From contig CAWCKY010000004.1 in NCBI GenBank assembly GCA_963796275.1, positions 448,001 through 512,000 of the forward strand: 64,000 nt of DNA, read 5' to 3'. Source of the DNA: an uncultured Acidobacteriota bacterium (GTDB lineage Bacteria > Acidobacteriota > Blastocatellia > RBC074). Within the stretch, counting starts at the first letter, position 1. Each line of letters begins with the position of its first letter. The notes beneath the pieces are model-generated. The model saw only the letters and a program-made list of their open reading frames with translations, was not told the origin of the DNA and did no database searches. The position numbers and the translations under genes were made by a program. Of the stretch, positions 2,002-58,534 are shown one piece after another.

Positions 2002-2088
2002 TTATGGTGATTCTGGAAACAAAAAGCAACAAAAGTATCAAAACATTCTCCGTTTTTTATCTTGTATCTTTTTATTTCTCATAAATCA

Positions 2089-3195
2089 CTATTCTCTCCT
2101 GAAGTTTTTTAGGTAATAACCGACGATCAGCGGTACATCTTGATCGTAGCTTACGATACCGCCTGCAACACCATTGAATCTTAAATAGGCCTGAACGACC
2201 TTGGCAGACAACACCCTGACATCCGGGTTTCTGCCGTCCTCCCAAAATTGGCGGCTGGCATCCAAATCCGCGGATGGACCCGGTGCGACCAAATCTCTAT
2301 AGCGGCCTGCATCCGCGTTTTCGATCTCCCCGAGAACTCTCACGCCATGCATATATCCCGAATAGCGCACATATGGATCATCGGCATTTATACAAATGAC
2401 AAAGGCAATAAAATTCGCCTCGTCTTCTCGCGCATAACCGCGCTGATGAGCCTTCTGGTTCGCGATGGTGAACGGTAATTCGGCTGGAGGTATCAATTCG
2501 TTGATGGCCGGCTCGGCCGTGAAGGGAAGATAGATACCGCTGAAGCCGAGAATACTCATCAGTCGCGAAAGATAGAATGGTTTGGGTGGACCTAAGCCTC
2601 CCTGGCTGGCCTCCTGAAGCGGATATGTCTTCTGAAATGAATCCTCGATGACCTGATTGAGCCGCTGGCGCGTCAGCGGAAGCGTACTCGCCCGCGACCA
2701 ATCCTGACCTTCGCTCGCCGCCTTGTAGTTTTGATTGATGCCTTCCACTATCCGCGCGCCGATAGCCTGCAATTCACCAGAGTTTGTGGGTCGGACTTCC
2801 AAATCCCAGGTCTCCGCGATCGGCAACCGTTGAAAATTCATGCCCCATAAGAAGAGGAAGACCAGGTAAACGATACCAAACACCCACGTCAGTCGAAGGA
2901 ATAGCAGCTTTATTACGTCGAGGGGGCGGCTATCACCGCGAACTGCGCGCCGAATATTCCAGATCACCCAGCCCAAAAACCATAGGATCAAGGCGATCAG
3001 AAGAACCTCTCCCAGCGTGAAGTTGACAAACCTGTTAAAAAACGAAAGCCCCCTCGCAATGTAATAGTAGATCAATTGGCTGTAGACCACTTCGATGATC
3101 GCCGGCATCAGACCAGCCACTGTCTGTAGGATCAGAGCGATCAAAAGCAGTTGCGCGGCTTTCAATAATAACTTCCCAAACCCGTTTTTTTTCAC
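2089..3195 (-). CDS. DUF3810-family membrane protein (zincin-like, HExxH degenerate); true start may be ATG 3266 across a 1-nt indel
   Basis: N-terminal TM helices; LFLWGMNFQR, GFSGIYLPFTAE and PFTIANQKAHQRGYAREDEANF match the DUF3810 pattern. Confidence 0.8.
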   Translation of the reverse strand: MKKNGFGKLLLKAAQLLLIALILQTVAGLMPAIIEVVYSQLIYYYIARGLSFFNRFVNFTLGEVLLIALILWFLGWVIWNIRRAVRGDSRPLDVIKLLFLRLTWVFGIVYLVFLFLWGMNFQRLPIAETWDLEVRPTNSGELQAIGARIVEGINQNYKAASEGQDWSRASTLPLTRQRLNQVIEDSFQKTYPLQEASQGGLGPPKPFYLSRLMSILGFSGIYLPFTAEPAINELIPPAELPFTIANQKAHQRGYAREDEANFIAFVICINADDPYVRYSGYMHGVRVLGEIENADAGRYRDLVAPGPSADLDASRQFWEDGRNPDVRVLSAKVVQAYLRFNGVAGGIVSYDQDVPLIVGYYLKNFRRE

Positions 3196-3474
3196 CGGCG
3201 CCGCTTTTTCAGCCCCCGCACTAACCTCCGGGGTTGCGGGGGAGGTGATTCTGTTTCTTGGGCCATAACAAAGTAGTGTCTGAGATCAATAAGTTGAAAT
3301 TGAGATCTCAAATCGTTTGTATTTAATTGGTATTGATATGGAGGATTTGCAAATTAAAGACCGAGATAAACGACAGACTCGGAGCAGCGCAGGAGATGCG
3401 CAATATCTATAGTTGTTCTAACACCGCTCCGGTTCAATCGGGAGCGACGGATAATTATAATTTGCACGCTTAAT

Positions 3475-3861
3475 TTATAGCACGATTGCGTCCACCTCGA
3501 TCTCAATGAGCATCCGATCATCGATTAATTTCCGTATCTCAACCATCGTCGTGCAGGGTTTGATCTCCTCGAAGAATTCTCCGTGCGCGCGACCGTACTC
3601 CTGCCAGAGGGAGATATCAGTCACAAACATACGCGTTCGCACGACATCTTTGAGAGAAGCTCCGAGAGCGTGGAGGGCTCTCTCGATATTGCGAATTATT
3701 TGAACAGTTTGCGCATAACCGTCGCCAACTCCGACAATCCCGCCATTCTCATCGGTTGCAGTCGTACCGGTGACAAAGATTTGATGGCCGACTCGAATCG
3801 CCCGCGAATAGCCGACTATCGACTCCCACTTTGTTCCTGACGAATAATATTCTCTTTCCAT
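3475..3861 (-). CDS. RidA/YjgF family protein
   Basis: SSGTKWESIVGYSRAIRVG...DVVRTRMFVTDI...IEIEVDA. Confidence 0.9.
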   Translation of the reverse strand: MEREYYSSGTKWESIVGYSRAIRVGHQIFVTGTTATDENGGIVGVGDGYAQTVQIIRNIERALHALGASLKDVVRTRMFVTDISLWQEYGRAHGEFFEEIKPCTTMVEIRKLIDDRMLIEIEVDAIVL

Positions 3862-4087
3862 TTATTCCTTTTTCGCTCCATTTTAGATATCGATGAGCAT
3901 TGTTCGCAGGAGAAGGACTGGAGTTCCTGCGGACAACAGTTACCAGGGCCAATGACCAGGTTCGACAATAGCCAATTCAAGCATGAGTTTCAATTTAATT
4001 GAATGCTGTGCAAATTCGGTTGGCCCCGGAGAGCCGGATGTTAATAGTATACGATTGAATATTTTGGATATTTGGAACAGGCCTCAT

Positions 4088-5551
4088 TTAATTGCTCATC
4101 AGGATCGCGCGCGCGCACTCCCGCCCGCTCCAGACCGCGCTTTCGATGGTCGCCGGCAATCCGGTATCGGTCCAATCTCCCGCGAGGAAAAGATTGCTGA
4201 AATCTGTGCGTTGTGACGGTCTCAAACGAGCCATTCCGATTGAATGTGAAATGGTCGCATCCTGCTCTCTCACAACGAAAGCGTGCACCGGCCTCTGCCG
4301 CCGTGCGGCGGGGAAAAATCGCGCTATCTCGCCGGAGGCTATTTCGATCAGCTCATCCTTCGGTTTCATGGCCGTCTCGTGCGCGCCGCTGATGACTAGC
4401 GCGAGATGCTGTCGCTTCCCAACGCGCGCACCTGCAATTGCGTTCTTATTGAAGACCCATTCAATCGGTGAATCTAGCAGGCCGGCAAATTCCAGATCGG
4501 TGACGGTTTTTTCGAACCAGAGATTGATCGAAACGATAGGCGCTGTGCTGAACCGATCGAGATGATGAAAACAGTGTTCTCCCGACGCGATTTCTGTTTC
4601 CAGCATCCTCCCGAGAGCAGCAGGCGGCACCGCGCTGACGATCGTTTCAGCCTCGATCCGTTGTCCATTGCGCAGTAGAACGCCTGAGGCCTGCTTCGAT
4701 CCGTTCGCCCCAATTACCCCACTTTCACCGTTTGCCCCGTTTGCCCCGTTTGCCCCGTTTGCCCCGTCGACGCTAAATTCAATCTGTGCGACATCGGCAT
4801 TCAGCATAACTTCTCCGCGGTGCTCCTCGATGAATCTCCTGGCGTCTTCAGTATAGAGGTCGCTCAATCCGACTTTAGAGATGATCAGGGCGGAATCACG
4901 TTTAGCGTGAAGAAAAGCCTGATCCAGGACGCAGGCGAACATATCCGCCGAGGCGACTTCGGGCGACTCATTTAAGGTCGCAAGGGCCACGACGTCCCAG
5001 AATCTGCGCTGAATTCTTTCCGGCTGGCCCAAACGATCGAGCCACTGACGCACGGTGATGTCTGCCAGCCCAGCGCGGTTGCCGTTCAGCCTACGCAATT
5101 CCCGACCCACACGCAGAGCCTTGATCCGATCAAGCCAGCCGATCGTTTTCAGGCTTGCCAATCCACCCAATAGATGCAACGGGGCAGGCAGGGGAGGACA
5201 TTTGAAGATAGCGTGGCGGACGGCTCCATCGCTCGATTCATAAATGAAATCCACTCTCGGATTCGCCTGGGTTTTGAGTTTATCGTGAGCGCCTATTTTT
5301 TTGAGGAAGGCCAGCGTGTTGTGATAGCAGCCCATCATCAAATGCTGGCCGTTATCGATCGTGTCACCGGTGGTTTTATCCTTGAATGAGTACGCGCGGC
5401 CGCCGAGAAACGAACGACGTTCGAGCAGCAGGACTCGCCTCCCGGCCTCGGCCAGATCAACGGCAGCGGCGAGACCCGCAAAGCCACCACCTATGATAAT
5501 AATGGGCAGGGACCGGGCGGCGTGGCGAGCGGCCGCATATTCATTGCTCAT
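4088..5551 (-). CDS. hpnE: Hydroxysqualene dehydroxylase HpnE (FAD-dependent)
   Basis: GGGFAGL Rossmann motif, LGGRAYS, IDNGQHLMMGCY, LAGDWTDTGLPATIESAVWSG; ATG 5551 overlaps the hpnD stop. Confidence 0.92.
   Translation of the reverse strand: MSNEYAAARHAARSLPIIIIGGGFAGLAAAVDLAEAGRRVLLLERRSFLGGRAYSFKDKTTGDTIDNGQHLMMGCYHNTLAFLKKIGAHDKLKTQANPRVDFIYESSDGAVRHAIFKCPPLPAPLHLLGGLASLKTIGWLDRIKALRVGRELRRLNGNRAGLADITVRQWLDRLGQPERIQRRFWDVVALATLNESPEVASADMFACVLDQAFLHAKRDSALIISKVGLSDLYTEDARRFIEEHRGEVMLNADVAQIEFSVDGANGANGANGANGESGVIGANGSKQASGVLLRNGQRIEAETIVSAVPPAALGRMLETEIASGEHCFHHLDRFSTAPIVSINLWFEKTVTDLEFAGLLDSPIEWVFNKNAIAGARVGKRQHLALVISGAHETAMKPKDELIEIASGEIARFFPAARRQRPVHAFVVREQDATISHSIGMARLRPSQRTDFSNLFLAGDWTDTGLPATIESAVWSGRECARAILMSN
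4731..4766. repeat. Perfect 9-bp tandem repeat (TTTGCCCCG)x4 in hpnE, encoding a GAN repeat
   Basis: Read directly from the sequence; in-frame DGANGANGANGANG insert. Confidence 0.95.
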
Positions 5552-44724: not shown

Positions 44725-46152
44725 ATGACAAACTCCACAATATCACGACGTCGCTTGATGAAGCTGGGTTTCGGCGCTGCTACAGCGGCCGGCCTCATAT
44801 CTGCGCCTGGAACTGGCGCTGAGATGGCGGAATCCGATTCATCGCCTTTCGCCAGAAATGGTAGCGACGGCGAGCATTTCACCGCTGCATCCCAACGCGC
44901 CTATTCGTTTCTGGGGGCGATGATGGATGCCTATGCGCAAGGATCGACCTTGCGCCTCGTACAGAGCTACACAGACCAGCAGGGATTATCAAGCACTGCT
45001 TTCACATACGACAATGCACAGGTCATCAATGCGTATCTTATGCGCAGACGCTGGGATGATATAGCCAGGGCGCGGGTGATCGGCGACGCCCTGTTGTACG
45101 CTCAGCGAAATGACCCTGACTTCAATGACGGGCGGCTGCGCCAGGCATATTTCGTAGACCAGCCTGACGCGAATGGCGTCTTCCTCAGGCTGGCCCTTGC
45201 GCCATTTTTCTTCGTCGGGAGCGCAGTCGGCGACATGTCCTGGGCCGGGATGGCACTGGCGCAGCTCTCTGCCCGGACTGGAGACCGCAAATATCTCGAT
45301 GGAGCGGTCAGCCTCGGCAACTGGATATTCAACGTAACATTTGACCAACGCGGCCCGGGCGGCTACAACTTCGGCGTGGACGGTGGGAATAATCTGTTGC
45401 TATTCAAGTCAACCGAACACAACATCGATGTCTACGCTCTTTTCGGTATGCTCGCTCGACTGACCGGCGACGACCTCTGGTCAGAACGGGCAGAACATGC
45501 CCGTAATTTCCTCAATTCAATGTGGAATGCTGAGGCGAGGTTTTTCTGGACCGGAACTGGAGCGGATGGCGCAACCATCAATCGGGATAACATCCCCGCG
45601 GACACTCAGACATGGTCATATATGGCGTTACTGGATGACCAATTCGCAGATTCGATCGATTGGGCAAAGACGAACCTGGCCACCACCGATACGCCGCAGA
45701 CGATCAACAGCCGACTGACGGGAAACATTCGCATTCAGGGCTCAAGTTATGCCAGCTTAAGTATGCGAGCGCTCGCGCCGTCTTCGGAATTCGATGAGCC
45801 GCCTGACCCGAACGCTGTTTGGCTCGAAGGAAGCGCTCACCTGGCCGCTTCGTTGTCAGCTCGCCGACAATCTTCCAGGCACGACATCGACGGGTTCGAC
45901 GGAGACCGGGAGACAGCGCGATTTCTGCTCGATAACATCGCTCTGGCACAGGAGAAATTGGGACAAGGCCAGACGGTCGGCGGGAGAGCGCTGCCGGACG
46001 CACAAGGCGTAGTTGCATCCACCAGCGTCGTCAATACAGGATTCGGCTTCTCCTTTTACCCGAATCGACATGTGGGAGCTACTTCCTGGTACCTGATCGC
46101 CGATCAATCAGGCAATCCATTCCAACTCGGTTTTCGTAAAAACCGAGATTAG
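44725..46152 (+). CDS. Tat-exported protein, probably (alpha/alpha)6 glycosidase-like
   Basis: SRRRLMK twin-arginine signal; AFTYDNA, KSTEHNIDVY, VWLEGSAH motifs; GAGG RBS. Confidence 0.7.
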   Translation: MTNSTISRRRLMKLGFGAATAAGLISAPGTGAEMAESDSSPFARNGSDGEHFTAASQRAYSFLGAMMDAYAQGSTLRLVQSYTDQQGLSSTAFTYDNAQVINAYLMRRRWDDIARARVIGDALLYAQRNDPDFNDGRLRQAYFVDQPDANGVFLRLALAPFFFVGSAVGDMSWAGMALAQLSARTGDRKYLDGAVSLGNWIFNVTFDQRGPGGYNFGVDGGNNLLLFKSTEHNIDVYALFGMLARLTGDDLWSERAEHARNFLNSMWNAEARFFWTGTGADGATINRDNIPADTQTWSYMALLDDQFADSIDWAKTNLATTDTPQTINSRLTGNIRIQGSSYASLSMRALAPSSEFDEPPDPNAVWLEGSAHLAASLSARRQSSRHDIDGFDGDRETARFLLDNIALAQEKLGQGQTVGGRALPDAQGVVASTSVVNTGFGFSFYPNRHVGATSWYLIADQSGNPFQLGFRKNRD

Positions 46153-46333
46153 CAGCGGGATGGAGTGCTAAAATCTCCGAGGTCTGATGGCCTTTGAATA
46201 ATAATGCGACCGCGCGGGGCAGACCTGTGTGTTATTTGTGTGTCTGCCCCATATGCGGTACCGCATTGATGCATTTATTTTTTTCAAAAACCAGCAGACC
46301 TACAAACCCTAGTTTTCAGTTGGGTTTTCTGCA

Positions 46334-49300
46334 ATGCCTAAACATAATCTCCCAATCATTACCCTCATCCAATCGTTTGAGAACGAGACCTATCTAGCCG
46401 AAGCCCTCTTCTTCCCGGAAGCGCTCCGTTTTCACGATCAAGTCGCCAAGGCGAAGGAAAGCCTGCTCGCAAATTTGCGTCAGCTGGTCGAAGAGATGGC
46501 GCATTCGTCCATTTACCAGCGCCACTACTCCGGCGAGCCCGAGGCCGGCGTAGTCGAAATAACCATCGATCCGCCGCAAAAATCTCTCGCCTGGCGCAAG
46601 CCGATTACTCTCAGGATTCCGATCGTGCGGTGGAGTCACGGCGATGTCGCGCAGATAGCATATGTCCCTACGCTCGGCATCGAAGTCGTGGCGACAAGCC
46701 CGCCTTCCAGGGCGGCGCTCAATAAACTCGTCACACAGCATATCCGCCTGGCGCTGGGAAGAACTGATCGGCTTAATTCGCTCGGTAAACTCATCAGGTT
46801 GGAACGCCCGTGCGAATTGCGGATCGAGCATCTCTCGATCGAGGTTCCGCTGCAAACTCCCAAACGGATAGCAGCGCGCGATCAGGAGAGAGACGAGACC
46901 AGGCAATCGGTGCTCGCTGAAGCGGCGACTGATCTGACCAAAGAAAATCTTGCGCCGGCTTACGAAGTGGGCGAAGCAGTCACGCAACTAGCCGAAAGTT
47001 TGACCGGCCGCTTCCCGCGCAGCGTTCTGCTCGTCGGCCGTTCGGGCGCAGGCAAGACCGCCATCGTTTATGAGCTCGTGAGGCGTCGCTCCGACTTGCA
47101 GCTCGGCCAGACGCCGTTCTGGACGACGAACGGATCGCGGCTGGTCGCCGGGATGTCGGGCTTCGGCCAGTGGCAGGAGCGATGCCAGAAGATCTGGCGC
47201 GAGGCCGCGCAGACGCACGCCGTCATATATCTCGGCAACCTGATAGAGTTGATGGAAGTCGGCAAGAGCATCGGTAACAGCCAGGGGATTGCCAGTTTTT
47301 TACGCCCGTATATCGAGCGCGGCGATGTATTGTCGATAGCCGAATGCACGCCTGAGCAGCTGACGCTCATCGAGCGCACTGAACCCCGTTTGCTCGAAGC
47401 CTTCCACCAGTTCAGGATTGAAGAGCCTTCCGCGGAACGCAGTAGAAATATCCTGCTCAACGTCGCTCTCGCGCAGTGCAGCGAGGCGGGAGCCGAAGCC
47501 GGCATCGAGCTCGAAGGCATCGAACGCATTGATCAACTGCACAGACGATATGCCACTTATTCCGCCTATCCCGGGAGACCGCTTCGTTTTCTCAAGAATC
47601 TGCTGCAGGATCATCTGAAAACCAACAGAAACCCGATGACTGCCGAAGATGTGACCGCGGCCTTCTCGCGCGAAACGGGGCTGCCGCGCGTGCTGCTGGA
47701 CGAGACGGAGAAGCTCGATCTCGAAGAGACGCGCGCCTGGTTCACCTCGCACGTAATCGGACAGCCCGATGCGGTCGATCTGATCGTCGACCTGCTTGCG
47801 ATGGTCAAGGCGGGGCTCACGCGCCCGCGCAAACCCATCGCGTCGCTCCTCTTCATCGGGCCGACCGGTGTGGGTAAAACCGAAATGGCCAAATCGCTCG
47901 CCGAGTTTCTTTTTCAGGACCGGCAACGGCTTGTGCGTTTCGATATGAGCGAATATGCGGATCCGATCGCCGTCAACCGGCTTATCGGGGGCACGTTCGG
48001 CTCCGAAGGGCTATTGACGGCCAGGGTGCGCGAACAACCATTCGCCGTCGTCCTCCTCGACGAATTCGAGAAGGCGCATCCGCTCTTCTTCGATCTTCTG
48101 CTGCAGGTGTTGGGCGAGGGCCGGCTGACCGATGCGATCGGGCGCGTCGCCGATTTTTCGAATGCCGTCGTGATCATGACATCGAACTTGGGTTCGGAAG
48201 CATTCCAGCGCGGTTTGATCGGCTTTGGCGATGCAGCAGCAATGCGGCGCGCTGCGAACAACCATTTCATCAACGCCGTGCGGCAGGCTTTGCGCCCGGA
48301 GATGTTCAATCGCATCGACCGTATAGTTCCCTTCGCCCCGCTCGAGGAAGAAACGGTCTTTCGCATCGCGGAGCGCGAGATCGAACGCATCGGGAAACGC
48401 GACGGGATATATTACCGCGGCGCCACCCTTAATTTACGGGCGGGCGTGATTGAGCATCTGGCGCGCCGCGGATACGATGCGCGTTATGGAGCCCGGCCGT
48501 TGAAGCGCGCGATCGAACGTGAGCTCCTCGTACCGCTCTCCGAAGAGTTGAACAACCAGCAGCAGGATGGCGCATTGATCCTCGATATATCGATCGAAAA
48601 AGATAGTCTGAAAATCAATATCCTGCCGGCGCTTGAAAACATCGGTAAACATCCATCCGCGAACACGGCGGGAGGCTCGCTGGCGGCGCTGGCGAGCCAG
48701 TACGGTGAGACGCGGCGAGAGGTGCAGAGACTGGAATCCAGCCCGTCTGCGCTCAACCTGCGTAACGAGATATTCACGCTAGAGCGATTGGTGAAGCGAT
48801 TGGAAAGGGCAAAATGGAAAAGCCCGGCGGACCTGGCGCGCATCGTCGAGCTGCCCCGGCTCAATAGTGCCCTGAAGGCAATCAATGAATTCGCCAGGCG
48901 GATGACAGCGCTCGAACATCAAGCCTTACTCGCAGTCTACGGGAAGGTCGATGCGAATGCGGAACTCCTCAAAGCGCGACTCGATGCGGCGGACGGCGAG
49001 TGGATCGAACTGCTCATCTCGACCTACTCACTCAGGTTTAAAGATCCGGATAGGATAACGCTCGCCGTTTACAGTGAAGATGTTTCCGCATTGTTCATGC
49101 TGGCAGGAGGATATTATCAATTGGCGAGGAAATACGGCGCTGAAATCGCGGCATATCAGTTCTGCGCGAAGCGGGACGAGCGGCCGAAATCCCGGGCGGC
49201 CGGGGTTTCTCAAATCGATGGCAGGAAGATCGAAAATTTCGAGCTTTTCCTCTCCACGCCTCGCGATGTTGTAATCGGCATCGCGCTGGGCCTCGAATTT

Positions 49301-49612
49301 CCGCTGGCCTATCCCAGCCTCGAAGCCGAACGTGGGCTTCACCAATTCATGCGTGCGAAAAAGGCGACCAAGTGCCTGGTGGAGGTCGGTGAAAAAGAGG
49401 TCTCTGCTTACCAGCCGCCCGCTGGCATTGAACGCCATGGCGCGATCGGACATCAGGAAAAGCGCCGCAGTTATAACATCGATCAATCGTTCATCGAAGA
49501 CGCCTTCTTGCGGCGGAAAACCCCGTGGCCGGGCCGCGCTCTCGATGATGCCATGGGCGAGTTGATAGAAGAATGTCTCCTGATGAAGGCGAGAATGTTG
49601 ATTGACGAGTAG
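46334..49612 (+). CDS. Divergent ClpA/B-type double AAA+ ATPase #1 with HicB-like N-terminus and release-factor-like C-terminus
   Basis: GRSGAGKT, GPTGVGKT, RFDMSEY, LLDEFEK, IMTSNLG, RPEMFNRID, YGARPLKRAI. Confidence 0.9.
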   Translation: MPKHNLPIITLIQSFENETYLAEALFFPEALRFHDQVAKAKESLLANLRQLVEEMAHSSIYQRHYSGEPEAGVVEITIDPPQKSLAWRKPITLRIPIVRWSHGDVAQIAYVPTLGIEVVATSPPSRAALNKLVTQHIRLALGRTDRLNSLGKLIRLERPCELRIEHLSIEVPLQTPKRIAARDQERDETRQSVLAEAATDLTKENLAPAYEVGEAVTQLAESLTGRFPRSVLLVGRSGAGKTAIVYELVRRRSDLQLGQTPFWTTNGSRLVAGMSGFGQWQERCQKIWREAAQTHAVIYLGNLIELMEVGKSIGNSQGIASFLRPYIERGDVLSIAECTPEQLTLIERTEPRLLEAFHQFRIEEPSAERSRNILLNVALAQCSEAGAEAGIELEGIERIDQLHRRYATYSAYPGRPLRFLKNLLQDHLKTNRNPMTAEDVTAAFSRETGLPRVLLDETEKLDLEETRAWFTSHVIGQPDAVDLIVDLLAMVKAGLTRPRKPIASLLFIGPTGVGKTEMAKSLAEFLFQDRQRLVRFDMSEYADPIAVNRLIGGTFGSEGLLTARVREQPFAVVLLDEFEKAHPLFFDLLLQVLGEGRLTDAIGRVADFSNAVVIMTSNLGSEAFQRGLIGFGDAAAMRRAANNHFINAVRQALRPEMFNRIDRIVPFAPLEEETVFRIAEREIERIGKRDGIYYRGATLNLRAGVIEHLARRGYDARYGARPLKRAIERELLVPLSEELNNQQQDGALILDISIEKDSLKINILPALENIGKHPSANTAGGSLAALASQYGETRREVQRLESSPSALNLRNEIFTLERLVKRLERAKWKSPADLARIVELPRLNSALKAINEFARRMTALEHQALLAVYGKVDANAELLKARLDAADGEWIELLISTYSLRFKDPDRITLAVYSEDVSALFMLAGGYYQLARKYGAEIAAYQFCAKRDERPKSRAAGVSQIDGRKIENFELFLSTPRDVVIGIALGLEFPLAYPSLEAERGLHQFMRAKKATKCLVEVGEKEVSAYQPPAGIERHGAIGHQEKRRSYNIDQSFIEDAFLRRKTPWPGRALDDAMGELIEECLLMKARMLIDE

Positions 49613-49680
49613 TATTGGAACAGGAAATACTGCTCGGGCATTCCGGCCGCGCATTTTTATGCTAGTGACGTACTAAAGAT

Positions 49681-52600
49681 ATGAACCTCACCATTCCAAT
49701 CTACATCGAGCAATTGCCGCAAGAGGGGCAGTCGACGCCGGTCTATGCCGTGCGCCCGCTCTTCTTTCCCGATCCGATCGGCCTCGATGTTGAGCTGCAG
49801 CGAGCGCTGGCGAAGTTTGCCAAGGCGATGAGGCGTGATCTCGATAGCAGAGGGCGTGCGATGCGCCACGATTCTCTCGCAGAATACTGCTTCGCGCCTG
49901 AAGTCGATGAGGAATTGATCACACTCGCGCTAGATCCTGAAAACGCGCACGGCTCGCTGTTCGTTCCTCTTCGTCACGATCAACGGCTTCGATCGCCGCA
50001 TTGCATTCACCCCGAACCTGCCTCATCTCTGGTTCGAACTCGAGCGGGGTGAAGACCTGCATATGCGGGCAACGGAAGTTCTGACCAGCTACTTCCGCGG
50101 GAAAGAGAAAAGCGGCGGCGCAACGCTAGCGAAACCCGAGGAAATCTCGGTTCAGCACAAGGCGTGGGCGAGCACCATCGAGATCGAAATTCACCCGCCG
50201 CCGCTCGCCAAAACACCTCGCGAAAATTTCCGCGCGATGCTGAGCGGCGGTGAGCTGATGGATGGCGAGTGGGAATTGCAGCAGATCGGCCGCTGCCTTG
50301 ACTGGCTCTATCCCAATGAACTCAAGCGCGTCGTCGCGCGCGATAAAGAAGTCGAAGAACTGACGAATCTGCTGAAATCCACCGATCGTCGCCCCGTCAT
50401 CTTACTCGGCGCTCGGATGGTCGGAAAGACAGCAGTAATCGAGGAGTGCGTTTATCGAAAAGTCGAAAGACAAAAATCGAAATTCCGATCTCGCAACAAC
50501 GTCTGGCTGATCGCGCCGCAGCGGCTGATCTCGGGTATGTCCTACGTCGGACAATGGGAGAACCGCTTGCTCGCGATCATCGATGAAGCTAAAAAGCGGA
50601 ACCACATCCTCTACTTCGACGACCTGCTCGGTTTATTCAAAGCCGGCATCAGCCGCGATGCCAACCTTAACGCCGCCCAGGTGTTGAAACCATATCTGGA
50701 GCGCCGCGAAGTGCGCGTCGTGGCCGAGATCACGCCCGAGGCATGGCGGGTGCTGCGCGAACAGGATCGCGGATTCGCCGATCTTTTTCATATTTTTCCC
50801 GTCAATGAGCCTGATGAAAATGCCGCGCTCGAAATGCTGCTTGGCCTGATGCGCCAATTGGAGCATCAGCATCATTGCCGGTTCAATCTCGACAGCTTGC
50901 CGGCGGCGCTCGATCTGCAGCGGCGATATGTGCGCGATGCGGCCTTCCCCGGCAAAGCCGCCGTGTTCCTCCGGCAGCTTGCAGTCAAGTATCGCGGAGA
51001 GATGATTGGCCGCGAATCGGTGCTGGCGGAGTTCAGGGCGAAGAGCGGATTGGCGCCCTGGTTCATCGGCGACCACGCCTTTAGCCGCTCCACCGTAATC
51101 GAATTTCTGGGAAGAGAGGTCATCGGACAAACGGCCGCTCTCGCAGCGGTAACCGATGCCGTTTGTGTGGCGAAAGCCCGTCTTAACGATCCCGATCGCC
51201 CGCTCGCTTCTTTCCTATTCCTCGGTCCGACCGGTGTAGGTAAAACGCAATGCGCCAAATCGCTCGCGCGCTTCCTTTTCGGTGATGCGGAAAGACTGAT
51301 CCGCTTCGATATGAACGAATTCATCTCTCCCGGTTCGGTGGCACGTCTGGCCGGCACTTTCGATCAGCCCGAAGGTCTTTTGACGAATGCCGTGCGCAGA
51401 CAACCGTTCTCTGTCGTGTTGCTCGATGAGATTGAAAAAGCGCATCGCGATGTATTCAACCTGCTGCTTCAGGTCATGGGTGATGGGAGATTGACCGACG
51501 CGCTGGGACGGACGGCGGACTTCACGAATGTCATTTTGATCATGACCTCGAACCTAGGCGTCAAGGAAGCGGGAAGCGAACTGGGCTTCTGGTCACAGCA
51601 AACGAATGAAGGAAGCATATACAGGCAGGCCGCCGAGCGTTTTTTCAGCCCGGAGTTCTTCAACCGCGTTGACCGCATCGTGCCGTTCCAACGGTTGGAC
51701 CGCGAAGCCGTCCAGCAGATCGCGGGTCAGCTGATCTCACAACTCTTCCAGCGCGAGGGCCTGGCGCGGCGCAGATGCGTGTTGAACGCCGATGAACGCG
51801 CGCTCGCGCAGATCATCGATAAAGGCTTCCACCCCCAGCTGGGCGCGCGCGCCTTGAAACGGGCGATCGAGAGTGAACTGGCGCAGCCGGTTGCGAAATA
51901 TCTCGCGTCTTCTCAACAGCCCTCTCCCACAGTCATCAATGTCCTGCCGTCGCCGGGCGCGCTGCGGGTCGAGATTCAGGAATTGGTGGAGGCAACATCT
52001 CCGGAGAACTCGGTCGCGCAGCTCCTGCAGGATCCGCGAGCGGCGTTGGCGCGCATCGAGGATTTCATCGATCGGACCGAGGCCGAGATAGCTCGCCTGC
52101 AGCCTGAAGGGGCGATTTCGATCGATGCCGTGCAACCGCAGCATCGCCGATATTTCGCGATGCGCGAGCAGATCGGCAATTTGAGGCGCTACTGCGACCG
52201 GATGCGCGGCCGGATCGAAGCATCATCTAGAGCTCGATTGCGATTGACCAGAAATTACGTACGCGCTTCCCGCCGCCCGCAGGTTTTCGGGCATCTCGAA
52301 AATCACGTTCGGCAGGTATGGAAATCATTGTTCGCCGCTGAAGACATGTACGCTTATCTGACCGACCTTGCAGCAATAAGCGGGGGGGCCGGGGGCGGCG
52401 ATGATGCGATCGAAAATCAACTGGCGGATATCATTTGCGAAGCGGCGCTTTTATCGATGCTCGCCGGCGGTGACGATGAGAGAGGCAATTGCCACGCGCT
52501 GGTGATGATCCGTTTCCTGGAAAGAAGTCTATTGAGTAGATGGACGCAATTGAGTTCGACATATTTCGAACTTTTCAGCAATCAGTTCGGAATGGATGTT

Positions 52601-53005
52601 AAATACCTGGAGCACGACAAATTTCATCCGGATGTATGGTTGCTGGTGCAGGGTTGGCAGGCCGTGAGGCTGGCCGAGATCGAGGCAGGGACACAACTCT
52701 TCATCCTGACAGAGGAGGTGATTGAGCCCATGCAAATCAAAGTCTTGCCGCTCGAACCTGATGCCGATCCTCGCTCGCAGATTGCCGATTACCGCAGGCG
52801 CCACGGTCTGCAACTGCCGTCGGATGCAGCGGGGGAGAACGGGTTCTTGCAATTCGATCCGGTGATCCGGATACATCACAGTCAGAGCTCAGGCGCGATC
52901 GTCGATCTTCGTTCGGGATTGACTACAACGAATATTCTCTCGCCGGAGAACCTGCGCAAACTGTTGTTGTCAGCGCTGCCGTTGCCGCCCGAGTTGAGTG
53001 AATAA
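49681..53005 (+). CDS. Divergent ClpA/B-type double AAA+ ATPase #2, split by a 1-nt insertion near 49936 (ORFs 49681-50052 and 50063-53005)
   Basis: Removing one C from GATCCTG gives one ~1107-aa frame (...ALDLKTRTARCSFLFV...); GARMVGKT, GPTGVGKT, LLDEIEK, PEFFNRVD, LGARALKRAI. Confidence 0.85.
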
Positions 53006-53131
53006 ACAAGCGATCAGGGGAAACAAAAAAGTAAAACCGATAAAAATGACCAAAACATATTTTGCCTATTTTGCCTTTCGTCTCTTTTTGATTCCCGTTA
53101 AACTCGACATTTCTTTATCAGCAAAAAACAC

Positions 53132-55423
53132 ATGCCGACATATCGTTATCCGGTACTGATCTGGGAAGATTTCATCGGGCACTTCACCGCCAGACTCGTC
53201 GAGGACCTGGAAGCGCCCGCCGGTTTCGGCGCTACCAAATCTGACGTGCTCTTCCAATTGAAAGATTATCTCAATTGGACGCTTCTCAACCGTCCATGGC
53301 AGGCGGAGCCCGACTTCAATAATGCCGCGCTGGTCAATCTTCGCGTCGAAGTCCGCCCAGAGTATCAAGTCCAGGACCGCGTCTATCCTTGCGATGAATC
53401 TATCATTCTCCGCGTACCTTGCGTGCAGGGAAGCAATTCGAGCGGATTGATGATCTGCTCATTGCCGATGATGGGCGTGAAATTCTTCTATCACGAATTG
53501 AGCAGGTTGAAACACCTGGTAAATCATTACTCGCAGGAGCGATTGAGAGGGCAACCTCCGCACGCGATCTCGCGCTTCCTCCAACCCAGATCGGTGGTGC
53601 TCGACGAAATCGTAATCCACTCCAACCGCTCTCATCCAGGAAATCGATATACCCCCGAATTGGGGACTCTCAGTTCCGTCGCGGAACCGCTGGGCGATAA
53701 GAAACTCCGGCGCTCGTTTTCGCGCGCCTGGGAGCGCGATCAGGAGGTGGCAGACCTCGCCCAACGGATTGGGCGGGAAAAGGCGAATGTCATAATTTCA
53801 GGCGAGGGTGGCGCGGGCAAAACCTCGGTGCTTATAGAAGCTGTGCGATTGGTCGAGGGACAGGTCGAGCAAGAGCCGCATAAAACGGACAATGCCCGTA
53901 ACAAATTCTGGATGACCTCAGGCGCGCGATTAATAGCCGGAATGCAATACCTCGGCGAATGGCAAGACCGATGCGAACGCGTCATAGAGGAATTATCCGA
54001 TATCGATGGCGTGTTGTGCGTGGACAATCTGCTCGAACTCATTCGCGCCGGCACGGGCAGCGTATCCGAGAGCATCGCGATGTTCTTCATCCCGTATTTG
54101 CAGCGCAGCGAACTGAGGATGGTGGCCGAGGCCACGCCGGCGGAACTCGACGCCTGCAGGCGGTTGTTGCCTGGTCTGGCCGACTTATTTCAAATCCTCC
54201 CGCTTCAACCTTTCAGCCGTGAACAGGCGGTCAGGGTGCTAAACCGTGTAACTACAACGCACGCGCGCAATCGTAAGATCGAGATCGGCACCGATCTGGC
54301 CGGGATGACTCATCGGTTGTTCCGCCGGTTTCAGCCATACCGGGCATTCCCGGGCAAGTCGGTCGCTTTCATCAATGAGCTTTTCGAAAGGGTGACGCGG
54401 AATAAACTGAGTGGAATCGCGAACAACGATGTGATCGCCCATTATGTGGAGCAGACAGGATTGCCCGAGATATTCCTCCGCGATGAGATTCCACTGGCGC
54501 ACACGGAGGTGCGGGAGGCCTTCCGCAGTCAGGTTATCGGCCAGGAAGAAGCATGCGAAGCGGCCGCGCGCCTGGTCACAACATTCAAAGCCGGAATGAA
54601 CGATCCGGCCAGGCCGCTCGGCGTGCTGCTATTTTGCGGCCCAACCGGTGTCGGCAAGACCGAGCTGGCTCGCGCAATCGCGCGCTATTTTTTCGGCGCA
54701 GGTAAGCGACCGGATGAGTCGCGACTAGTGCGGCTGGATATGAGCGAATATTCGGGTTGGAATGGAGCGCAACGTTTGCTCGCCGGATCCGATGGTGAAC
54801 CGAGCGACCTGATCAAACGGATGCGTCAACAGCCGTTCTGCGTTGTGTTGTTGGATGAAATAGAGAAGGCCGATGCCGATGTATTCGATGTGCTGCTCAG
54901 CGTTTTCGATGAGGGCCGATTGACCGACCGTTATGGCCGCGTCACTACATTCCGCAGCTCGGTGATTATTATGACCTCCAATCTGGGAACGGATAAGCTG
55001 GGAGCGACGGGGTTTGAGACGCGCGCGGCGCCGTCGTATACGCGCGAAGCGATGGGATTCTTTCGCCCCGAATTCTTCAACCGGATCGATGCCGTCGTAC
55101 AATTCCATCCGCTCTCGCGCGAGATGATGCTCCGTATCACGGCGAAGGAGTTGCGTGAGATTTCCGGGCGTGAAGGTTTCCTGAGAAACGATTTGCGGCT
55201 CGAGTGGGACGATGAGGTGATCGAATACCTCGTTAAAGCCGGCTTCGATCAGCGTTACGGCGCGCGCCCGTTGCAGCGCACGGTCGAGAAGCTCGTCGTC
55301 GCGCCGCTCGCGCGTTACCTGCTCGCGCATCCCGAGCTGAAAGGCGCCAGTCTTCTTCTTTCGCTGGATAGAGAGAATAAGACGCTTACCTGCAATCAGT
55401 CTTCGGTCAGCTTGCGCAAATGA
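53132..55423 (+). CDS. Divergent ClpA/B-type double AAA+ ATPase #3 with HicB-like N-terminus, no C-terminal extension
   Basis: GEGGAGKT, GPTGVGKT, RLDMSEY, LLDEIEK, RPEFFNRID, YGARPLQR. Confidence 0.9.
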   Translation: MPTYRYPVLIWEDFIGHFTARLVEDLEAPAGFGATKSDVLFQLKDYLNWTLLNRPWQAEPDFNNAALVNLRVEVRPEYQVQDRVYPCDESIILRVPCVQGSNSSGLMICSLPMMGVKFFYHELSRLKHLVNHYSQERLRGQPPHAISRFLQPRSVVLDEIVIHSNRSHPGNRYTPELGTLSSVAEPLGDKKLRRSFSRAWERDQEVADLAQRIGREKANVIISGEGGAGKTSVLIEAVRLVEGQVEQEPHKTDNARNKFWMTSGARLIAGMQYLGEWQDRCERVIEELSDIDGVLCVDNLLELIRAGTGSVSESIAMFFIPYLQRSELRMVAEATPAELDACRRLLPGLADLFQILPLQPFSREQAVRVLNRVTTTHARNRKIEIGTDLAGMTHRLFRRFQPYRAFPGKSVAFINELFERVTRNKLSGIANNDVIAHYVEQTGLPEIFLRDEIPLAHTEVREAFRSQVIGQEEACEAAARLVTTFKAGMNDPARPLGVLLFCGPTGVGKTELARAIARYFFGAGKRPDESRLVRLDMSEYSGWNGAQRLLAGSDGEPSDLIKRMRQQPFCVVLLDEIEKADADVFDVLLSVFDEGRLTDRYGRVTTFRSSVIIMTSNLGTDKLGATGFETRAAPSYTREAMGFFRPEFFNRIDAVVQFHPLSREMMLRITAKELREISGREGFLRNDLRLEWDDEVIEYLVKAGFDQRYGARPLQRTVEKLVVAPLARYLLAHPELKGASLLLSLDRENKTLTCNQSSVSLRK

Positions 55424-55458
55424 CGGCCCACCGCGGCTTGGGTCTACTCCCCTCACTG

Positions 55459-55884
55459 TCAATTAGCTTGCGGGACTTTGGCAGTTGGCAAAGCAAGGAC
55501 GGTATCAATCGCGTGGATGACGCCGTTGTCGCATGCGATATTAACCATTATTACTCTCGCGTTATTCACCTTGATCCCCTTGTTAGAGGTAATAGTCACA
55601 TTCTGCCCATGCACGGTCTTCGCTGAAGAGAGCTTCATCACATCTGCGCCCAGCGCCTTGCCCGCCACCACGTGATAAGCCAGCAGTCTCCTCAGCTTAG
55701 GAATGTCATTGAGCAATCCCTCGACCACGCCCTTGGGCAGTTTGGCAAAGGCCTCGTCGTTCGGCGCAAAGACCGTGAATGGCCCTGGCCCCGAAAGTCT
55801 TTCCGACAAGCCCGCCGCTTTAATCACTGTAATAAAGGTTTTGAATGAACCGTTAGCGATTGCTGTTTCTATAATCTTTTTCAT
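55459..55884 (-). CDS. Fasciclin (FAS1) domain protein, no signal peptide
   Basis: GPFTVFAPNDEAFAKLP, LAYHVV, NGVIHAIDTVL. Confidence 0.93.
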   Translation of the reverse strand: MKKIIETAIANGSFKTFITVIKAAGLSERLSGPGPFTVFAPNDEAFAKLPKGVVEGLLNDIPKLRRLLAYHVVAGKALGADVMKLSSAKTVHGQNVTITSNKGIKVNNARVIMVNIACDNGVIHAIDTVLALPTAKVPQAN

Positions 55885-56113
55885 TTGAAACTCCTTTTCT
55901 TGACTCTCTGGTTGATTCGCGATTGGGGATACGTCTCTCCTGCCCCCGTGCGTTAACCGGCGACTGTGGGGGCCGATGCCTTACATCGACTCCTGGTTAC
56001 GTTTGCAAGGATAGACTGATTGGGAATGGGTTTCTGTACAATATGGGACGATTTTTGTGAACAATTATGGCGAGGCTCGCAGACCATAATAATTCGACAC
56101 CGCGGGCAGTCTT

Positions 56114-57927: not shown

Positions 57928-58326
57928 CTAGCCCGACCCTGCTTCCGACCCCTGTCTTAGAGAGTGCTCACGAGCTTTCGCAACAATCTGCCAGACGGTC
58001 ATCATATCAGCTGTTTCAACATCCACCATACGCTCGTTGGGATTGTTTATTTCGATACGTTTTTTCAGTTCGCACTTTGCCTCTCCGGGACCCATTATCA
58101 AAATAGCTCCCGAATTCCAAAGAGACGAAATCACCTCGTCGTAGTAACGGTCAAGGCATTCCGTCAACTCTCTCTGTTGTAATTCGTCTGCCGGAAATGA
58201 TACGCCGAATTGTCTGTGTTGTTTTTCAATATTCGAATTGATCAACTTTATTTCTTCATCTCTGCCCGTCACAAAAACGATTACAGCCTTCGTATGATCT
58301 ATCCACAAACCCACTGTCGTCTTCAT
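57928..58326 (-). CDS. Stand-alone eRF1/aRF1-like (baeRF-type) domain protein
   Basis: VGLWIDHTKAVIV...YYDEVI...ILIMGPGEAKCEL...VETADMMT; GGAGA RBS before ATG 58326. Confidence 0.7.
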   Translation of the reverse strand: MKTTVGLWIDHTKAVIVFVTGRDEEIKLINSNIEKQHRQFGVSFPADELQQRELTECLDRYYDEVISSLWNSGAILIMGPGEAKCELKKRIEINNPNERMVDVETADMMTVWQIVAKAREHSLRQGSEAGSG

Positions 58327-58534
58327 AAAATTCTCTCCGATAAAACGGGTCCCCTCTGCGATTGAAATTGAACTTGCGAAGTCGGGGATGCTGATTTTTT
58401 GATATCCTTGTGAGACTTGAAACAAGACGATTTGCAATGCGTCTTCACACATCAGCCCTTATTTCATCTTCGCTAATTGCATTCAGGTCGGCTCACAGTG
58501 ATTGTTTTAGCGTTCGTCTCCGTCCTTTTCAGCA

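Follow-up and report, generated by a model that had tools for sequence, protein, structure and literature searches.

The window analysed here, a 64,000-nucleotide (nt) stretch of DNA from an uncultured Acidobacteriota bacterium, encodes a double AAA+ ATPase of the Hsp100/Clp type, here called ATP1 (ATPase #1), and the last ~300 amino acids (aa) of this protein form a region that is homologous to class-1 release factors (RFs), though divergent, and closest to RF2. The parts of ATP1 follow one another in the order N-domain, D1 AAA+, D2 AAA+ (AAA_2), ClpB_D2-small and RF2-like C-terminal module. This module keeps RF domain 1, the domain 2/4 superdomain and a switch-loop-like segment; domain 3, which carries the GGQ motif, is lost as a whole, together with the tripeptide anticodon loop. 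Two paralogues, ATP2 (ATPase #2) and ATP3 (ATPase #3), are encoded in the same window, and the C-terminal modules of ATP1 and ATP2 are referred to as CTD1 and CTD2. The architecture suggests, without proof, a motor protein aimed at the ribosome. The gene and the parts of its C-terminal module are located as follows, each with the evidence that defines it.

46334..49612, forward strand: ATP1, open reading frame (ORF) of 1092 codons/aa, translation 46334-49609
48701..49030, forward strand: RF domain-1-like helical bundle, ATP1 residues ~790-899 (profile against RF2, hhalign, model)
49040..49609, forward strand: RF domain-2/4-like superdomain, residues 903-1092 (hhalign against RF1, Foldseek)
49328..49390, forward strand: E-R-G-L-H motif (residues 999-1003) and truncated recognition hairpin (conserved columns, model, RF alignment)
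49391..49459, forward strand: ordered segment of 23 residues at the site of domain 3 (GGQ), residues 1020-1042, EKEVSAYQPPAGIERHGAIGHQE (model, conservation, hhalign)
49463..49606, forward strand: domain-4-like strands with RRSYNIDQSFIED and C-terminal helix (conservation, alignments, model)

Release-factor homology of the C-terminal module

The last 290 aa of ATP1 (P0004) were used as the query in a HMMER scan that covered 1.84 billion cluster representatives (50% identity clusters), and P0004 aligned with 67 short family matches (alignment A3, 68 sequences) formed the basis of a family profile. In an hmmsearch of this profile against PDB sequences, places 1-7 were all taken by RF2 chains (E 1.1e-7 to 3.3e-5); profile positions 74-231 fall on residues 2-162 of Thermus thermophilus RF2, and further pieces below the threshold fall on RF2 'GENAYGLLSPEAGVHRL' and 'IRSYVLDKNYVKDHR'. 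The same kinship was obtained with hhalign, which was applied in local mode with 17 Acidobacteriota RF2 or 30 RF1 as targets. The comparison with RF2 reached a probability of 95.6% (E 1.3e-8, score 65.1; P0004 21-205 with RF2 21-180) and that with RF1 a probability of 77.5% (E 1.9e-5, score 44.0; P0004 79-279 with RF1 79-342). As controls, 40 column-shuffled RF2 profiles scored 14.5 +/- 3.1 (maximum 24.6) and reversed profiles 19.4 and 23.3. When A3 was aligned with lone RF1 or RF2 sequences, the matches were weak and correctly placed (P 0.0014 and 0.0018).

Structure prediction led to the same protein family. An AlphaFold2 model of P0004, built with A3, has a mean predicted local distance difference test score (pLDDT) of 95.0 and a predicted template modelling score of 0.89. 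Foldseek retrieved 47 PDB matches at E <= 1e-3 with this model, the best being the RF2 entry 7oj0 (7.9e-9), and among the matches listed above rank 50, 44 of 44 are RF1, RF2, mtRF1 or mtRF1a; rank 50 itself is PrfH (9mor_A, E 5e-3). Template modelling scores range from 0.36 to 0.54 and are best against crystal or pre-accommodated forms of RF2 (2ihr, TMq 0.54; 5mdy, 0.53), moderate values that are to be expected from the absence of a whole domain and from differing domain orientations.

A likeness arising by chance or from composition, such as coiled-coil bias, has to be weighed against this result. Pfam and NCBIfam searches of P0004 and ATP1 gave no PCRF or RF-1 match at E <= 1, a single-sequence phmmer search of P0004 against the PDB gave 0 matches, and coiled-coil proteins (PspA, GCN4, keratin) occur low in the profile match lists, all of which would fit an absence of RF homology. 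Against this stand real profile scores 3-4 times those of the shuffled and reversed controls, alignments that run collinearly through domains 1, 2 and 4, a high-confidence model that retrieves only RFs among the matches listed above rank 50, and a paralogous family (P0184, described below) that does pass the Pfam PCRF cut-off. A spurious resemblance is thereby refuted and retains next to no probability.

The model and the alignments allow the retained and the missing parts of the module to be laid out along the sequence. Domain 1 is represented by helices at P0004 2-23, 29-35, 38-66 and 74-97. In the first part of domain 2, to P0004 ~143, hhalign places 'FKDPDRITLAVYSEDVSALFMLAGGYYQLARKYGAEIAAY' on the RF sequence 'KDPND..ILEVRAGTGGEEA.LFA..L.RMY.RYAE..GW'; it is followed by ~30 extra residues (P0004 ~144-172), for which the model is less sure (pLDDT 73-80). 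Residues E197, G199 and H201 of P0004 are near-invariant in the 68 sequences and pair with RF 'ESGVH' / 'ESGVHRVQR...'. The adjoining recognition hairpin, LHQFMRA-KK-ATKCLVEVG, consists in the model of two strands (199-205 and 208-217, assigned with DSSP) joined by a turn of two lysines and contains no PxT or SPF tripeptide; the same hairpin reads 'HRVQRVPQTEASGRIHTS' / 'RVPQTEASGRIHTS' in the RF1 of this genome, and its RF2 carries SPF.

Domain 3 is replaced by the 23-residue segment listed above (P0004 218-240), which is modelled with pLDDT 95-98 and has no regular secondary structure. No GGQ occurs in P0004, RF1 ~210-289 (the GGQ domain) has no partner in the hhalign alignment, and ExGxH and RRxY lie 40 aa apart in ATP1 as against 123 aa in both RF1 and RF2 of the same genome. 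The second half of the segment aligns with the RF stretch directly before IRTY, which we take to be the switch loop, hence the term 'switch-loop-like' for its ATP1 counterpart; hhalign pairs 'ERHGAIGHQ---EKRRSYN' of ATP1 with 'RRSQVGSGDRSEKIRTYN' of RF1. The segment also contains a family-specific Y-x-P-P motif, of which Y1026 (Y224 in P0004) and P1029 (P227) are invariant in 15 full-length orthologues, P1029 being near-invariant in the 68 sequences, and P1028 (P226) is likewise invariant in subsets of 12 and 6 sequences. From P0004 242 onwards, domain 4 is recognised by RRSYNIDQSFIED, with conserved R1044, R1045 and D1056, by its strands and by the C-terminal helix. The conserved residues of the module are thus of two kinds, the ExGxH, RxY and D motifs common to RFs and the family-specific Y-x-P-P.

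Compared with RF1 and RF2 (PF03462 and PF00472), the module shares ancestry and fold in domain 1, in domain 2/4 and in the segment before IR(T/S)Y; it differs in the lack of domain 3 with GGQ and of SPF/PxT, in the ~30-residue insert in domain 2, in a PCRF score below the Pfam threshold and in its fusion behind a 790-aa double AAA+ ATPase. It is a class-1 RF homologue and not a functional class-1 RF, because the GGQ domain and the tripeptide loop are absent and the Pfam threshold is not reached. With neither domain 3 nor a codon loop, it is predicted to be incapable of peptidyl-tRNA hydrolysis and of stop-codon reading by the known mechanism. In this genome, a scan with PCRF (PF03462) found prfA and prfB only, and PF00472 (RF-1) matched prfA, prfB and one 119-aa frame only.

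A sequence-only reading of the region had proposed that ATP1 ends, from 49040 onwards, in an RF1-like mimic preceded by a coiled coil. The peptides that it quoted are all contained in the 46334-49609 translation, position 49040 opens codon 903, which encodes the K of KDPDR, and 49612 is the last nucleotide of the ORF. Its claim of RF homology is upheld by profile, hhalign and Foldseek comparisons, the last of which it had suggested as a check, and RF2 takes the place of RF1 as the closer relative; the Pfam PCRF search that it had also suggested came back blank. The proposed reduction of domain 3 to a short linker and the shortening of the codon-reading loop, a turn of 2 residues in the model, agree with the anatomy given above. 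The stretch it delimited is RF-like and starts ~340 nt too late: the supposed coiled coil is RF domain 1, and therefore the RF-like part begins near residue 790 (window ~48700). Domain 1, the kinship with RF2, the second module in ATP2 and the co-inheritance of the three ATPases had been overlooked. In function, the same reading saw a non-catalytic binder of the A site that could recruit an unfoldase to ribosomes or serve as a decoy for RF-targeting factors, a role that stays putative.

The ATPase motor and its paralogues

Upstream of the module, ATP1 is composed of three parts, and the genes of its two paralogues follow.

46334..46903, forward strand: N-terminal domain of ATP1, ~190 aa (ORF translation)
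47027..47269, forward strand: D1 motifs of ATP1 (MAFFT alignment with the genome's own Clp ATPases)
47831..48562, forward strand: D2 AAA+ and small domain of ATP1 (Pfam, PDB match, MAFFT)
49681..53005, forward strand: ATP2, with an RF2-like module lacking GGQ at about 52292-53002
53132..55423, forward strand: ATP3, a paralogue of 763 aa with no C-terminal module

Pfam identifies AAA_2 at residues 500-663 of ATP1 (E 5.9e-41) and ClpB_D2-small at 670-743 (E 9.9e-15), and the PDB sequence closest to D2 is Escherichia coli ClpB (E 1.4e-35). The NCBIfam ClpA model is collinear with residues 180-739, and the scores of ATP1 lie far under every NCBIfam equivalog cut-off. ATP1 likewise falls short of the equivalog score of the NCBIfam ClpB model TIGR03346 (324.6 bits; cut-off 1232), which matches in two stretches; the collinear ClpA model lacks the coiled-coil M-domain, for which no separate search was made. 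The N-domains of ATP1 and ATP3 (53132-53731) have no Pfam match and no PDB sequence match. A short conserved core that lies at residues 91-119 in both links the two weakly (BLASTP E 0.002), and W87, W100, P112 and L114 of the N-domain are conserved in 69 sequences of the ATP1 family.

The motor motifs were compared through a MAFFT alignment of ATP1, ATP2 and ATP3 with the Clp ATPases of the same genome. Walker A in both D1 and D2 and a canonical Walker B in D2 are present in all three ATPases as well as in the genome's ClpB/ClpA-like proteins; in ATP1, Walker A of D1 reads LLVGRSGAGKT and the equivalent of the pore loop AGMSGFGQWQERC. Walker B of D1 reads VIYLGNLI in ATP1, ILYFDDLL in ATP2 and VLCVDNLL in ATP3 as against ILFIDELH in the ClpB/ClpA-like proteins, so that its glutamate is missing in all three, and the G301 and N302 found there in ATP1 are invariant in 15 orthologues. 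The D2 pore loop (window 47960-48030 in ATP1) has also changed in all three ATPases: it is 5 aa shorter and has lost GYVG, with GGTFG..SEG in ATP1, GTFDQ..PEG in ATP2 and AGSDG..EPS in ATP3 in place of GAPPGYVGYEEGG, the loop of ATP3 is without any aromatic residue, and the PDB sequence alignment pairs 'gtfgse' of ATP1 with 'GYVGYE' of E. coli ClpB. With pore loops degenerate in D2 and Walker B dead in D1, classic processive threading by the three ATPases appears doubtful. The label 'unfoldase' given to ATP1 by the sequence-only reading is uncertain, since the canonical GYVG pore loop of D2 and the acidic pair of the D1 Walker B are missing.

In ClpA, ClpC and ClpE, a tripeptide [LIV]-G-[FL] after sensor-1 of D2 serves for docking to ClpP. 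A tripeptide of this kind stands 6-8 residues past the sensor-1 NLG in each of the three ATPases, namely IGF in ATP1 (8 residues; context 'GLIGFG', ~48200-48215), LGF in ATP2 ('ELGFW') and TGF in ATP3 ('ATGFE'). At the same offset, VGF occurs in a ClpA-like ORF of 769 aa in this genome and none in the ClpB-like ORF; the loop that bears the tripeptide in ATP1 exceeds that of E. coli ClpB by only 5 residues. The [ILT]-G-F of the three ATPases may be a ClpP-docking tripeptide.

ATP1 is accordingly a homologue and not a canonical member of the Hsp100/Clp proteins (ClpA, ClpB, ClpC). It shares with them two AAA+ modules with Walker A, a D2 of the AAA_2 type and ClpB_D2-small; it differs in an N-domain that is unrelated or of no known match, in the dead D1 Walker B, in the short D2 loop without GYVG, in the RF-like C-terminal module and in its occurrence as three co-inherited paralogues.

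ATP2 carries the second RF-like module. In this assembly the gene is broken by one extra base at 49936 into 49681-50052 and 50063-53005, as judged by tblastn of the orthologue P0171, and its orthologues are single ORFs of 1088-1115 aa. The extra base is absent in both metagenome contigs that cover the site (X1, ~99% alike, depth 2; X2, ~91%, depth 12), and for that reason the frameshift probably arose in assembly or is a mutation private to this genome. A CTD2 profile of 13 rows aligns with RF2 at a probability of 70.1% in hhalign (E 4e-5; score 43.7 against <= 21.7 for shuffles), and when a 6-sequence profile was searched against the PDB, places 1-7 were RF2 (E 6.6e-4 to 1.3e-3), followed by keratin at 0.076. 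The orthologues carry E-x-G-[TA]-H, which reads EAGTQ in this genome, and also 'PVIRxY..DLRSG'; the spacing from ExGxQ to IRIH is 55 aa, and no GGQ is present. CTD1 and CTD2 are nearly unrecognisable as relatives of each other (BLASTP nothing, hhalign 33%). By these profile comparisons, CTD2 is classed as a second, more divergent GGQ-less RF2-like module.

A third case is provided by P0184, a separate AAA+ family represented by a 1081-codon frame in another Acidobacteriota genome (locus L039 on G022:C8, 9894-13136, minus strand). P0184 has ~31% identity in the AAA+ part, and a PCRF domain at its C-terminus scores 30.0 bits, above the Pfam cut-off of 24; it has neither an RF-1 domain nor GGQ, and ~60 residues stand at the place of domain 3. 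An hhalign comparison of A3 with P0184 was uninformative, as only the ClpB_D2-small overhang of some rows was matched. Because P0184 also carries a PCRF domain, fusions of an AAA+ ATPase with an RF-like module exist in at least three lineages (ATP1, ATP2 and P0184).

A putative ribosome-directed role and its alternatives

When an RF is bound, the helical bundle of its domain 1 is located on the factor-binding side of the ribosome, and the contacts of RFs with the ribosome are mostly to RNA. The parts retained in the ATP1 module are those that let RFs occupy the A site and the factor-binding side without catalysis, and the module is therefore most simply understood as a ribosome dock. At a probability of roughly 0.55, we favour the reading that the RF2-derived module is a ribosome-docking device for a hetero-oligomeric ATPase that would act on A-site-free ribosomes. 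The RF-like modules would be codon-blind, catalytically dead docks for the ribosomal A site or decoding centre, placing a ring of ATP1, ATP2 and ATP3, probably a hetero-hexamer, on ribosomes that are stalled, vacant or hibernating; hydrolysis of ATP by D2 could then remodel or remove something bound there, or split or clear the ribosome. The whole would parallel, on the basis of a bacterial RF, the pairing of Pelota with ABCE1 or that of Vms1 with Cdc48. A more specific proposal, possible and to be held only tentatively, is an undescribed ribosome-surveillance machine in which the three ATPases dock via their two GGQ-less RF2 modules and extract or degrade a bound protein, or split the ribosome; its substrates might be a trapped factor, a hibernation factor, a toxin or a nascent chain.

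To our knowledge, the RF relatives without catalysis that have been described in bacteria, namely Pelota, Balon and baeRF1, all belong to the aeRF1 superfamily. Within this group (Pelota/Dom34 with ABCE1, Balon, most baeRF1 and Vms1 with Cdc48), catalysis or codon reading has been lost and ribosomes are still engaged, and two of the cases work with an ATPase (ABCE1 and Cdc48); the group offers the closest functional analogy to ATP1. Balon is described as an aeRF1 homologue without NIKS and GGQ that occupies the A site independently of mRNA (PMC10901736), and Dom34/Pelota and Vms1-Cdc48 are among the RF relatives engaging ribosomes that are described in a second paper (PMC6514570). The aeRF1 group differs from ATP1 in its unrelated fold (aeRF1/RNase H-like), in consisting of separate proteins and in keeping the middle domain, as opposed to a fusion with the domain deleted; ribosome binding has been demonstrated for the group and is predicted for the ATP1 module.

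Derivatives of bacterial RFs that work outside normal termination, as the ATP1 module may do, include PrfH, ArfB/ICT1, mtRF2b and a tick ICT1-like protein. The last two are reported to have lost the GGQ motif (PMC3472500); these are point losses in a retained domain and involve no ATPase fusion, whereas in ATP1 the whole domain is gone. In PrfH and ArfB the GGQ domain is still present and other parts have gone, the reverse of the ATP1 module. PrfH, as described in PMC6514570, keeps the GGQ domain, lacks domain 1 and is linked to RtcB; in the ATP1 module GGQ is absent, domain 1 is present and no non-ATPase neighbour is conserved, which sets it apart from PrfH. Full-text literature searches, which did not cover the supplementary architecture lists of PMC6514570, returned no description of a fusion between a Clp/AAA+ ATPase and a bacterial RF module, and in the text of PMC6514570 as searched 'Clp' occurs 0 times and 'AAA+' 3 times, about CDC48 where the context was visible. 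In ATP1 it is the bacterial RF2 scaffold, minus catalytic domain and codon reader, that is joined to an ATP-driven motor. If A-site binding is true, this would be the first Clp/Hsp100-type machine aimed at the decoding and factor-binding site of the ribosome and would open a route to ATP-dependent ribosome clearing, rescue or recycling in soil bacteria; even with another target, the module illustrates how far the RF fold can shrink and stay under selection.

Several observations weigh against a ribosome-directed motor. Ribosome binding by the module is deduced from homology, and the codon-reading loop, a main contact of RFs with the decoding centre, has been lost. When the family members were scanned singly, 0 of 68 reached E <= 0.1 with Pfam PCRF. 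The C-terminus of Hsp100 proteins lies at the D2 (exit) face of the Clp ring, and the module is placed at this end and not at the substrate-entry face. To these are added the condition of the motor (the missing D1 Walker B glutamate and the shortened D2 pore loops of all three ATPases, that of ATP3 lacking aromatic residues), the frameshift of ATP2 in this assembly, tempered by its absence from both covering contigs, and the sparse distribution described below (6 of 301 genomes). Finally, the cluster has no conserved neighbour related to ribosomes, tmRNA or proteases, and the one clear ClpP gene of the genome (E 1.6e-80) lies on another contig, like a second, weak CLP_protease match.

Some of these points would equally be expected if the fold had been exapted and the module worked off the ribosome. 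The ATPase would then be an otherwise ordinary chaperone of the Clp type or partner of a protease, in which the module binds substrates or adaptors, regulates or mediates oligomerisation. The loss of both the mRNA-reading loop and the domain that reaches the peptidyl-transferase centre, the position at the D2 end of the ATPase, the lack of conserved translation-related neighbours and the strong divergence of CTD1 and CTD2 are all in favour of exaptation. It leaves unexplained, however, that all three non-catalytic ribosome-binding parts of RFs (domain 1, domain 2/4 and the switch-loop-like segment) are kept and that the RF-shared motifs are near-invariant over 68-163 homologues. Two independent GGQ-less RF2 modules occur, moreover, in one co-inherited trio, with a third AAA+ family beside them in P0184, which points to a shared target, and exaptation is regarded as rather unlikely. 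Another use of the RF2 likeness would be that of a decoy or adaptor, in which the module mimics RF2 and so catches RF3, an ArfA/BrfA-like adaptor, or an RF-aimed toxin or phage factor for the ATPase. RF3 and ArfA/BrfA use surfaces of RF2 domain 1 and of the domain-2 sheet; RF2 is the closest relative of the module, precisely these parts are retained, and a sporadic, accessory distribution fits a conflict or stress system. Mimicry of this sort is nonetheless improbable: a conserved neighbouring gene for a candidate partner is lacking, PADLOC reported only generic AAA_2 similarity (DolB, PDC-M37B), tblastn of CTD1 against plasmids and phages gave no match, and a scan of viral contigs found none. 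Partners of the GGQ domain such as PrmC are excluded as targets because that domain is absent. Docking on the ribosome is preferred to both of these alternatives.

Distribution and genomic surroundings

Homologues of P0004 form a large family of at least 392 clusters (50% identity) at E <= 1e-3 and 236 at <= 1e-10, annotated only as 'ClpA/ClpC' or 'AAA family ATPase'. Among the matches listed, those of ~1040-1160 aa always have the module at the C-terminus, and the shorter ones are fragments. When 163 homologues were examined, both motifs (ExGxH and RRxY) were found in 119, with a spacing of 29-50 aa in 115 of these and a mode of 40 (57 sequences); the other 44 lack one motif and are mostly fragments or diverged. 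Three of the 163 (P0076, P0081 and P0153) have 'GGQ' where ATP1 has 'GHQ' (P0004 237-239), and a fourth has GGQ elsewhere. The GGQ of the three is probably a coincidence, because the segment is too short to reach the peptidyl-transferase centre.

In a survey of 301 Acidobacteriota genomes at a threshold of E <= 1e-5, the CTD1 profile, CTD2 and the N-domain of ATP3 were found in the same six genomes (this one and five others, of 6 genera), and the remaining 295 had no match to any of the three. The ATP1, ATP2 and ATP3 genes are adjacent in this genome and two others (G000, G050 and G022), scattered on one contig in G101 and G089, and distributed over two contigs in G251. As these kin are not independent, the joint presence of the three ATPases is to be read as a pattern, without statistical weight, and their sparse distribution indicates an accessory function. 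Named relatives belong to metagenome-assembled genomes (MAGs) of Acidobacteriota (Blastocatellia, 'Acidobacteria bacterium'), and cluster look-ups returned one Blastocatellia MAG name besides generic ClpA/ClpC labels and 'AAA family ATPase'. A search of genome contigs with ATP1 as a single protein found no relative. A back-translated motif pattern hit three loci, of which one (L044) is a chance match and the other two are real ATP1 orthologues. A full-length ATP1 orthologue with 53.6% identity over 1100 aa occurs at ~1283-4543 on the minus strand of locus L045, in a MAG of 10.4 Mb labelled Heliobacteriaceae; this label looks odd and is unconfirmed, and the same genome has a CTD2 fragment at a contig edge.

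No non-ATPase gene is conserved beside the cluster in the five loci compared. Its neighbours in the window encode a thiolase, a fasciclin protein, an RRM protein, a radical-SAM enzyme and CarD. A 174-aa ORF at 57928-58452 on the minus strand had been considered for a likeness to host-attachment or baeRF1-type proteins, which is unsupported, with no Pfam match at E <= 1e-3. Rfam recognised 0 families in 45900-55900, and a scan for promoters and terminators gave fewer sites than in shuffled sequence. A look-up of sequencing runs yielded no RNA data set and only soil or plant metagenome contigs of small share. Outside the window, the 119-aa frame matched by RF-1 (GGQ) lies at G000:C3:1427421-1427711 on the minus strand (80.3 bits); it probably represents a rescue factor of the ArfB type, and the genome therefore encodes, apart from prfA and prfB, at least one free-standing GGQ protein.

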